The position numbers and the translations under genes were made by a program. A DNA stretch of 64,000 bases from Escherichia phage vB_EcoM_IME392: the sequence record MH719082.1; one strand, written 5' to 3'. This document shows positions 25,806 to 26,104 of the stretch, one piece after another. Position 1 is the stretch's first letter. The number at the start of each line of letters is the position of its first letter. The notes beneath the pieces are model-generated. The model ran no database searches. It was not told the origin of the DNA and saw only the letters and a list, made by a program, of their open reading frames with translations.

Positions 25806-26104
25806 TAATTAGGGCCCGATTATTTCACTTAGCTTCCATCCGTTCGGGCCAACACGGATCGTACATGACGTTACCGTCGTTTCAAGTCACTCGGATTATT
25901 AGTTCCCGGTGCTCATATAAAGATGGTGCCACGTAGGGAATCGAACCCTATATCAGGTAAACGTCTAGCCGTAGACTGCTGAGTGCCCTCAGCTACCCTA
26001 TCACTTAACCGAACCATCGGCAAATCTTTCACAGATACTTACACGTGATTTTCTCTGATCGGATCTGGTGATTCCTCGGAGTCGAACCGAGGAGTGGCAT
26101 AATA

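Follow-up and report, generated by a model that had tools for sequence, protein, structure and literature searches.

What RNA do the tRNA-like sequences next to the tRNA-Met(CAT) gene of Escherichia phage vB_EcoM_IME392 belong to? On the minus strand of record MH719082.1, this gene is followed by two hairpins that look like the T arms of tRNAs, and the second of them runs into an acceptor-like strand and an encoded CCA. An earlier reading made from the sequence alone (the original prediction) took them for 3' fragments without a complete cloverleaf and listed pseudogenes or remnants, processing signals, and a non-canonical or interrupted tRNA as explanations. We analyzed the whole 64,000-nt stretch of phage DNA in which they lie (the window, whose numbering is used for all positions unless another genome is named) and compared the locus with its relatives. 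In our estimate, the probability is about 60% that positions 26098-25924 of the minus strand make up one discrete 175-nt tRNA-like non-coding RNA (hereafter, the element), which is neither a pair of fragments nor a decoding tRNA. We infer that it is best read as a tRNA mimic without a decoding role, which shares a transcript with tRNA-Arg and tRNA-Met and owes its ends to RNase P and to 3' trimming.

The 3'-terminal sequence at 25950-25924 (minus strand) reads UAGGG-UUCGAUU-CCCUA-C-GUGGC-A-CCA, as the original prediction had described it. The other hairpin, CUCGG-UUCGACU-CCGAG, is equally real; it is located at 26091-26075, about 6-10 nt away from the 26065-26085 first assigned to it, and it begins 13 nt after the CCA of tRNA-Met. 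Its 7-bp version spans 26093-26073. The full T-arm consensus, with the G53-C61 closing pair and the U54-U55-C56-R57-A58 loop, is thus found twice, at 25950-25934 and at 26091-26075. When both strands of the whole 64-kb window were scanned for a 5-bp stem with GTTCRANNC, four hairpins were found, two in the tRNAs and the two described here; in 200 dinucleotide shuffles, the average count was 0.245 and the highest was 2.

The 5' strand of the acceptor stem, for which 90 nt upstream had been searched in vain, is located 167 nt upstream: GCCAC at 26098-26094 stands directly 5' of the CUCGG-UUCGACU-CCGAG hairpin and pairs with GUGGC (25932-25928). The two supposed fragments therefore form opposite ends of a single 175-nt RNA. 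The idea of two independent 3' fragments is not supported by this arrangement, in which both hairpins fall within a unit that has a closing stem of p ~1.0 and that is inserted or missing as one exact block. A 5-mer complement located anywhere within 250 nt is not rare (P ~0.22); for it to fall on one of the roughly 6 offsets available at the far 5' edge of the unit, P is ~0.006. The parts of the element are as follows.

26098-25924, minus strand: proposed complete tRNA-like RNA, 175 nt, from G26098 (5' end) to the A of CCA at 25924 (3' end), delimited by the fold and the exact indel block
26104-26099, minus strand: 6-nt spacer UAUUAU between the tRNA-Met CCA and the element, belonging to the indel block
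26098-26094, minus strand: 5' strand of the acceptor-like stem, GCCAC, paired with 25932-25928 (p = 0.994-1.000)
26093-26073, minus strand: 5' hairpin in the D-arm position, UCCUCGG/CCGAGGA with the T-loop-type loop UUCGACU (p = 0.905-1.000)
26072-26000, minus strand: long arm of about 73 nt in the anticodon-arm position, with the base AUCAC/GUGAU (p ~0.6) and an interior fold that is not settled
25998-25955, minus strand: branched arm in the variable-arm position, with the base GGGUA/UACCU and two hairpins
25993-25978, minus strand: hairpin 1 of the branched arm, GCUGAG-GGCA-CUCAGC (p = 0.99)
25976-25963, minus strand: hairpin 2 of the branched arm, GUCUA-CGGC-UAGAC (p ~0.82)
25950-25934, minus strand: canonical T arm, UAGGG-UUCGAUU-CCCUA (p = 0.77-0.92)
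25933-25924, minus strand: 3' end, consisting of an unpaired C, GUGGC, the discriminator A (G in relatives L010 and L016), and the encoded CCA

Together, these parts are predicted to form an oversized cloverleaf with a minimum free energy of -60.3 kcal/mol. The same minimum free energy fold is obtained for three of the four distinct natural sequences, and the fourth, from Escherichia phage EP_H11, differs only within the long arm. The element with its 6-nt spacer folds at z = -2.96 relative to shuffled sequences. Whether the element is folded alone or within contexts of up to 300 nt, the closing stem and the 5' hairpin reach p ~1.0 and the T arm ~0.9; the 5' hairpin keeps p = 0.97 in a 650-nt context. 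This 7-bp hairpin abuts the acceptor stem with no linker and is invariant in all four sequences. Both hairpin loops of the branched arm (GGCA and CGGC) contain GG.

No established family accounts for this structure. As the original prediction held, the sequence is tRNA-like and lacks a canonical cloverleaf: no predictor calls a tRNA here at normal thresholds, and ARAGORN, which had been proposed as a check, reports no canonical or complete tRNA and no tmRNA (transfer-messenger RNA) at the element at default thresholds with introns on or off. The Rfam tRNA model does not match the element at the gathering score or at E <= 10. A 7-bp acceptor stem stacked on the T stem, giving 12 bp in all, is absent from the element, and an A/G discriminator and an encoded CCA are present. 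Searches for tmRNA with ARAGORN -m at default and 60% thresholds and with the Rfam tmRNA families were also negative. Both tmRNA and two-piece tmRNA were rejected, as no model matched, the third pair is C-G (not G3.U70), and no conserved tag frame exists, given an indel in EP_H11. An Rfam cmscan of the whole window at the gathering score, and of 25400-27000 at E <= 10, returned only the two tRNAs and chance matches; no Rfam family, including Y RNA-like, GOLLD, and ROOL, fits the element at E <= 10.

The phage lineage that bears the element is rare. Among 50,697 phage records searched with blastn, the region is shared only with EP_H11 (L001). Further relatives were found through the 90% protein cluster of the product of the downstream 263-aa gene, and other routes gave none. 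The contigs L010, L011, and L016 carry the element at ~99% identity, and EP_H11 carries it at ~98%. In L012, L013, and L017, both flanks are matched and the element is exactly absent, the tRNA-Met gene reading ...ACCA directly followed by TCTTTATATG. In all carriers (the window, EP_H11, L010, L011, and L016), the same ACCA is followed by TATTAT and the 175 nt ending in CCA, after which TCTTTATATG resumes. This exact presence/absence polymorphism therefore delimits a discrete cassette with tRNA-type gene boundaries. Other pieces of the locus, namely tRNA-Arg, tRNA-Gly, and the module 5' of tRNA-Met, are equally modular among relatives: L012 lacks tRNA-Arg together with the element, and L017 lacks the module 5' of tRNA-Met together with the element.

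Broader searches yielded no further homolog. Exact and degenerate pattern scans of IMG/VR gave only three chance matches (adjacent ordinary tRNAs or a GC-rich repeat), a metagenome pattern scan for the element gave a single chance match, and scans of GTDB genomes gave none. No match to the downstream protein emerged when IMG/VR was scanned with a peptide pattern, and distant phages with the helicase at ~35% identity have no equivalent RNA region. One chance pattern match, L003 (IMGVR_UViG_2681812969_000001), is an unrelated GC-rich viral contig, which at 6890-7200 contains several T-arm-like hairpins (GGTTCGACTCC) between GGC-rich repeats; ARAGORN calls no tRNA there.

Between the window and EP_H11, the element differs at 4 of 175 positions (2.3%); the adjacent tRNA-Met differs at 15 of 76, and four-fold degenerate sites in three flanking genes differ by 12-37%. 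The divergence of the element is 1.7-2.3%, and in every pairwise comparison the element and the block at 25810-25411 (~2%) are the least-diverged segments. This also applies to EP_H11 and L016, between which the leader adjoining the element is 12.6% diverged and the element is still in the lowest class.

Five sites vary among the carriers: two in the long arm that are unpaired or whose pairing is poorly defined, one deletion in a hairpin loop, position 60 of the T-loop, and the discriminator. In the T arm, only loop position 60 varies (U to C), a site that is also variable in the T-loops of tRNAs, and the discriminator change from A to G (L010 and L016) keeps RCCA. In EP_H11, the substitutions A45C and U64A in the long arm alter its interior fold, and 1 nt is deleted within the loop of branched-arm hairpin 2 (25976-25963). 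Because of this 1-nt indel, a conserved open reading frame (ORF) through the element is ruled out. A small ORF of 34 codons (AUG at 26017) was considered separately and rejected; it has no Shine-Dalgarno sequence, and the EP_H11 indel shifts its frame.

From these data, a polycistronic transcript can be proposed that would carry tRNA-Arg(UCU), tRNA-Met/Ile2(CAU), and the element. All three are on the same strand, as are all flanking genes, and copies of a ~40-nt motif (described below) at ~27314 and 25787 bracket the unit. Sigma-70 promoters and intrinsic terminators were not found beyond chance around the element. The terminal minihelix, with its 5-bp stem on the T arm, R-CCA, and U-1, would present the recognition features of bacterial RNase P, since the acceptor/T-arm minihelix, U-1 (U26099), and the 3' RCCA (A/G-CCA) are all present in the sequence. 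U at position -1 is the preferred leader nucleotide of RNase P, and the RCCA motif is recognized by RNase P RNA (PMC11143913). Both neighboring tRNAs likewise encode A-CCA. From U-1, the minihelix, and RCCA, we infer cleavage by RNase P and exonucleolytic trimming: the predicted RNase P cut falls after UAUUAU and makes the 5' end, and 3' exonucleases would shorten the transcript as far as the encoded CCA.

The result would be a stable cloverleaf of unusual size that lacks an anticodon arm and has two T-loop hairpins, each of which would be a potential site for modification by TrmA/TruB and could potentially dock onto the GG-containing loops. If it acts in trans, our likeliest guess is that it mimics a tRNA and so engages a host or phage factor that binds tRNAs; the same is presumed, equally without proof, for T4 RNAC. 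A more daring version, which we offer as a speculation with the odds well against it, is that both T-loops dock on the two GG loops of the branched arm, producing two elbows and tRNA-like surfaces without an anticodon. The RNA would then act as a phage decoy or sponge for a host factor that reads the tRNA elbow or the acceptor-CCA end, as one of several trans-acting RNAs produced from a 2.4-kb RNA-only locus. Candidate targets of such a sponge include a tRNA-targeting immune nuclease, a CCA-modifying toxin, and TruB, TrmA, or RNase P. If true, this would reveal a previously unrecognized RNA-based module of host takeover in a coliphage and offer a functional way into the question, now 50 years old, of what T4 RNAC and RNAD do.

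Several observations weigh against the reading of the element as one discrete tRNA-like RNA. Natural non-carriers exist, so the element is dispensable in nature. The evidence for its fold is thermodynamic, motif-based, and boundary-based, not covariation, and no helix has a compensatory change, because only four distinct sequences, 98-99% identical, are available. The U64A substitution in EP_H11 breaks one pair predicted within the long arm, and the absence of all five variable sites from the 76 nt of confident helices has a chance probability of 0.058, which is only suggestive. The locus is mosaic, with three tRNA-Met alleles that are 20-27% apart in relatives otherwise close to one another and an outlier 3' module in the window; the low divergence could therefore partly reflect recent recombination. 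The acceptor stem consists of 5 Watson-Crick pairs and a U.C mismatch, giving an acceptor/T stack of 11 layers compared with 12 bp in tRNA, and the choice of the RNase P site (G26098 or U26099) is therefore uncertain; U26099 is a possible alternative 5' end, as U(-1) can pair with A/G25927. Moreover, in contexts longer than 300 nt that include the next module, AAUCGGGCCCUA (25821-25810) can pair with the T arm, in which case the tRNA-like fold is no longer predicted.

The acceptor stem of the genuine tRNA-Met also falls to p = 0.27 in that long context. We read the loss of the tRNA-like fold in the long precursor as a limit of thermodynamic prediction for long RNAs, and it remains a caveat. 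The complementarity itself extends over 12 nt, with 2 G.U pairs, between AAUCGGGCCCUA at 25810-25821 and the 5' half and loop of the T arm at 25939-25950 (minus strand), and it dominates the folds predicted for long precursors; it may be coincidental or may reflect a second structure of the precursor.

Among the other explanations, the one that survives best, a live rival even though we consider it improbable, is that the tRNA-like fold is a processing signal acting in cis. In this case, the sequence would fold like a tRNA only to be cut by RNase P and other tRNA enzymes, which would part tRNA-Met from the structured RNAs or mRNA that follow, or shield their ends, and the released RNA would be functionless. 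The position of the element, between a tRNA and a conserved structured module (25923-25806, with 4 compensatory pairs) in an ORF-free chain of RNAs, would suit such punctuation, and so would the RNase P recognition features and the dispensability of the element in natural relatives. However, a minihelix of about 35 nt would suffice for that purpose, yet all 175 nt, including the interior of about 120 nt, are almost invariant. In non-carriers, tRNA-Met directly abuts the same downstream module; therefore, no spacer element is needed between them.

Slightly less probable again is a non-functional relic, that is, debris of illegitimate recombination between tRNA genes at the GGTTCGA common to their T-loops, which looks conserved through recent spread of the cassette by recombination. 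The absence of an anticodon arm, the first hairpin being followed by AAUCA-CCA in the manner of a decayed tRNA 3' end, the strongly mosaic locus with the element missing from three related contigs, and the lack of a homolog outside the lineage in phage-record, IMG/VR, metagenome, and GTDB searches would all agree with this origin. Against it, the complete consensus is kept in both T arms, and the closing stem is located exactly at the cassette edges. Its divergence of 1.7-2.3% is in the lowest class in all comparisons, including that of EP_H11 with L016, its changes avoid the confident helices, and its folding energy is well below that of shuffled sequences. The pseudogene or remnant interpretation contained in the original prediction is thus disfavored, as few segments of the locus have diverged so little and every copy keeps both T-loops and the confident helices intact.

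It is more doubtful still that the element is one arm of a much larger structured RNA, in which the ORF-free block of 2.4 kb would form a single ornate molecule with embedded tRNAs. Such a possibility is brought to mind by the conservation of 2.4 kb without convincing ORFs in EP_H11, by several modules with long-range stems and compensatory changes, by the mere ~2% divergence of 25810-25411, and by the precedent of GOLLD and ROOL near phage tRNAs. Nevertheless, the modules come and go independently (L012 and L017), which is a better fit to a chain of separate cassettes, the Rfam models of GOLLD and ROOL give no match, and the element is predicted to fold autonomously.

The weakest alternative, a decoding tRNA that is non-canonical or interrupted (for example, by an intron or an extra-long arm), is hardly credible. 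The acceptor-like stem, the T arm, the CCA in the sequence, and the location among tRNA genes would fit it, and ARAGORN at 80% thresholds with introns allowed does propose a "tRNA-Val(gac) with 25-nt intron" at 26022-25925, but this sole candidate has only one real pair in its D stem, two non-Watson-Crick pairs at the inner end of its acceptor stem, and an intron inside the anticodon that destroys two hairpins with p = 0.8-0.99, the same setting also calls a spurious antisense tRNA within tRNA-Met, default ARAGORN and Rfam detect no tRNA, and the alternative 5' acceptor partner UGCCG (26022-26018) has a pair probability of 0.000. To our knowledge, introns in bacterial and phage tRNA genes are group I introns longer than 200 nt.

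The tRNA-like RNA is located in an RNA-rich locus whose two tRNA genes are as follows.

26105-26180, minus strand: tRNA-Met(CAT), found by ARAGORN and Rfam (70.3 bits), whose CCA forms the 5' boundary of the cassette
26650-26725, minus strand: tRNA-Arg(TCT), found by ARAGORN and Rfam, in the same putative transcription unit as the element

The best E. coli matches of tRNA-Met(CAT), at ~85-87% identity, are annotated as tRNA-Ile, and judging by its sequence it is probably a lysidine-modified tRNA-Ile2 reading AUA. If so, the phage supplies two rare-codon tRNAs, the other being tRNA-Arg(UCU), the reader of AGA. Both genes are located in a stretch of 2.4 kb (25141-27521, minus strand) with no convincing ORF and with several strongly folded modules, which is conserved in EP_H11 and is flanked by a gene for a DenV-like DNA-binding protein (27522-28064) and by the 263-aa gene (24349-25140). 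A comparison of this stretch with Rfam found nothing besides the two tRNAs.

Three parts of this stretch (all on the minus strand) deserve a description. At 26181-26445, directly 5' of tRNA-Met, there is a module of ~265 nt with two domains, which is absent from L017. The first domain (~145 nt) is closed by CGGGAUC/GAUCCCG, and the second (~94 nt) has a 13-bp closing stem with a U-A to C-G compensatory change; a run of 17 G in L012, compared with 4 G in the window, may be an assembly artefact. Directly 3' of the element, 118 nt at 25806-25923 contain conserved hairpins with 4 compensatory pairs across five relatives; this module occurs in carriers and non-carriers, and its copy in the window is ~25% diverged from all others and has an 11-nt deletion. 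The third part, at 25411-25810, is a non-coding block of 400 nt upstream of the 263-aa gene. A copy of the 40-nt motif stands at its start, and its divergence is only ~2% in comparisons between all relatives. The block may represent an RNA that has escaped annotation or else a long structured leader; in EP_H11, a 37-aa ORF is annotated there.

The motif is a conserved block of ~40 nt, CCGCTCTTTT-N8-10-AAAGGCTGTTAAAnTG, with 15 copies (0.14 expected) between positions 1679 and 29184 of the window (minus strand), for example at 25772-25787, 27299-27314, 27482-27497, 27540-27555, and 24307-24322. It contains a hairpin with a varying but still paired inner stem. All copies share the strand of the leftward genes; most stand 15-65 nt before ORF starts, and GGAGG often follows. 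The motif is a candidate for a phage-specific promoter or an RNA-processing signal.

Two further features were noticed in the relatives. In EP_H11, a tRNA-like sequence at ~3680-3765, after tRNA-Gly, is not called by ARAGORN; it has a normal acceptor stem (GCCCACT/AGTGGGC), D arm, and T arm, and an aberrant long anticodon region. In L017, which lacks the element and the 5' module, an ORF of 210 aa (691-1323) is located within the RNA region beside tRNA-Arg. Its product has a weak restriction-endonuclease match in PHROG (E = 5e-5) and no Pfam match, and the arrangement is reminiscent of the SegB homing endonuclease within the T4 tRNA cluster.

For annotation, the consequence is that the region should be labeled as one non-coding RNA gene, and neither as tRNA pseudogenes nor left blank. 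Carriers and non-carriers that differ by an exact cassette offer a clean genetic system in which the role of such RNAs can be addressed. Additionally, a chain of conserved structured RNAs that extends over 2.4 kb without Rfam matches suggests that this lineage holds more unexplored RNA biology.

Among known systems, GOLLD and ROOL are phage-associated RNAs found near tRNAs. Structured RNAs borne by phages beside or among tRNA genes bring to mind the 2.4-kb block around the element; in contrast to them, the element is much smaller and itself resembles a tRNA, the local modules vary independently, and no Rfam match is obtained. Like tmRNA, the element has an acceptor stem in which the two ends of a long RNA pair; it also shares with tmRNA a T arm, a terminal CCA, processing by RNase P (predicted for the element), and the lack of an anticodon arm. 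However, the element has about half the size of tmRNA, and its third pair is C-G instead of the G3.U70 alanine identity pair.

The closest comparison is provided by the tRNA cluster of phage T4, in which rnaD (119 nt) and rnaC (139 nt), in this order, come directly after tRNA-Arg on the same strand. The roles of the rnaC and rnaD RNAs are still unknown (PMC3014915, PMC9697503), and RNAC was detected by Northern blot as a stable small RNA that accumulates during infection (PMC9697503). RNAC is the species 1 RNA of T4, discovered about 50 years ago. Similar to the element, rnaD (RNAD, species 2 RNA) is located in a tRNA cluster, where it abuts tRNA-Arg, and has a 5'-proximal hairpin with a 7-nt loop; its 3' end, ...GCGCACC followed by A, is reminiscent of GUGGCACCA in the element. 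In contrast to the element, rnaD has no T arm, its fold (z = -0.83) is indistinguishable from that of shuffled sequences, and no sequence similarity was detected between the two.

We found rnaC in 748 phage records, always in tRNA clusters (Tevenvirinae), and annotated in only a handful of them; homologs include those in L018, L019, L020, and L021. In IME523, rnaC is located 9 nt after a tRNA-Met(CAT), and its T-loop is replaced by UGCAUGC. An alignment of five divergent copies revealed covariation in the acceptor-like stem (G-C to A-U) and in the T stem, which makes rnaC the same kind of object as the element. Both RNA genes lie within the tRNA cluster of a phage and on the strand of its tRNAs, the element starting 6 nt past tRNA-Met; both have a terminal acceptor-like stem and a canonical T arm around a long non-tRNA interior, and their phages share the same host species. 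The differences are that the element has 175 nt compared with 139 nt of T4 rnaC, carries at its 5' end a second T-loop hairpin, has an acceptor stem of 5 bp whereas that of rnaC has 7 bp with two U.U mismatches, and encodes CCA where rnaC continues with ACAA.

Homology between the two was not demonstrable with covariance models in both directions or with shuffled local alignment. With filters off, the rnaC model (R1) reached 7.7 bits (E = 0.26) on the window, a score carried by the T arm. The model of the element (R2) gave ~10 bits on the rnaC of T4, KaAlpha, and KM16, the same as on tandem ordinary tRNAs, and its 22-bit match on NM4.3 partly uses the T arm of the upstream tRNA. When the T arms were removed and the interiors compared, only a 29-nt stretch in NM4.3 exceeded shuffled sequences (z = 4.2), and it is folded differently there. 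The element thus resembles T4 RNAC in design, by analogy and with homology not demonstrated.

In phage tRNA clusters, annotation is usually limited to the genes that tRNA finders report. The 748 almost entirely unannotated copies of rnaC, together with this element, indicate that non-decoding tRNA mimics have been overlooked in phage tRNA clusters. We classify the element as a variant of the T4 species 1 type of RNA from such clusters. It is apparently a second design of phage tRNA mimic, independent of rnaC and present in a cultured E. coli phage (EP_H11).

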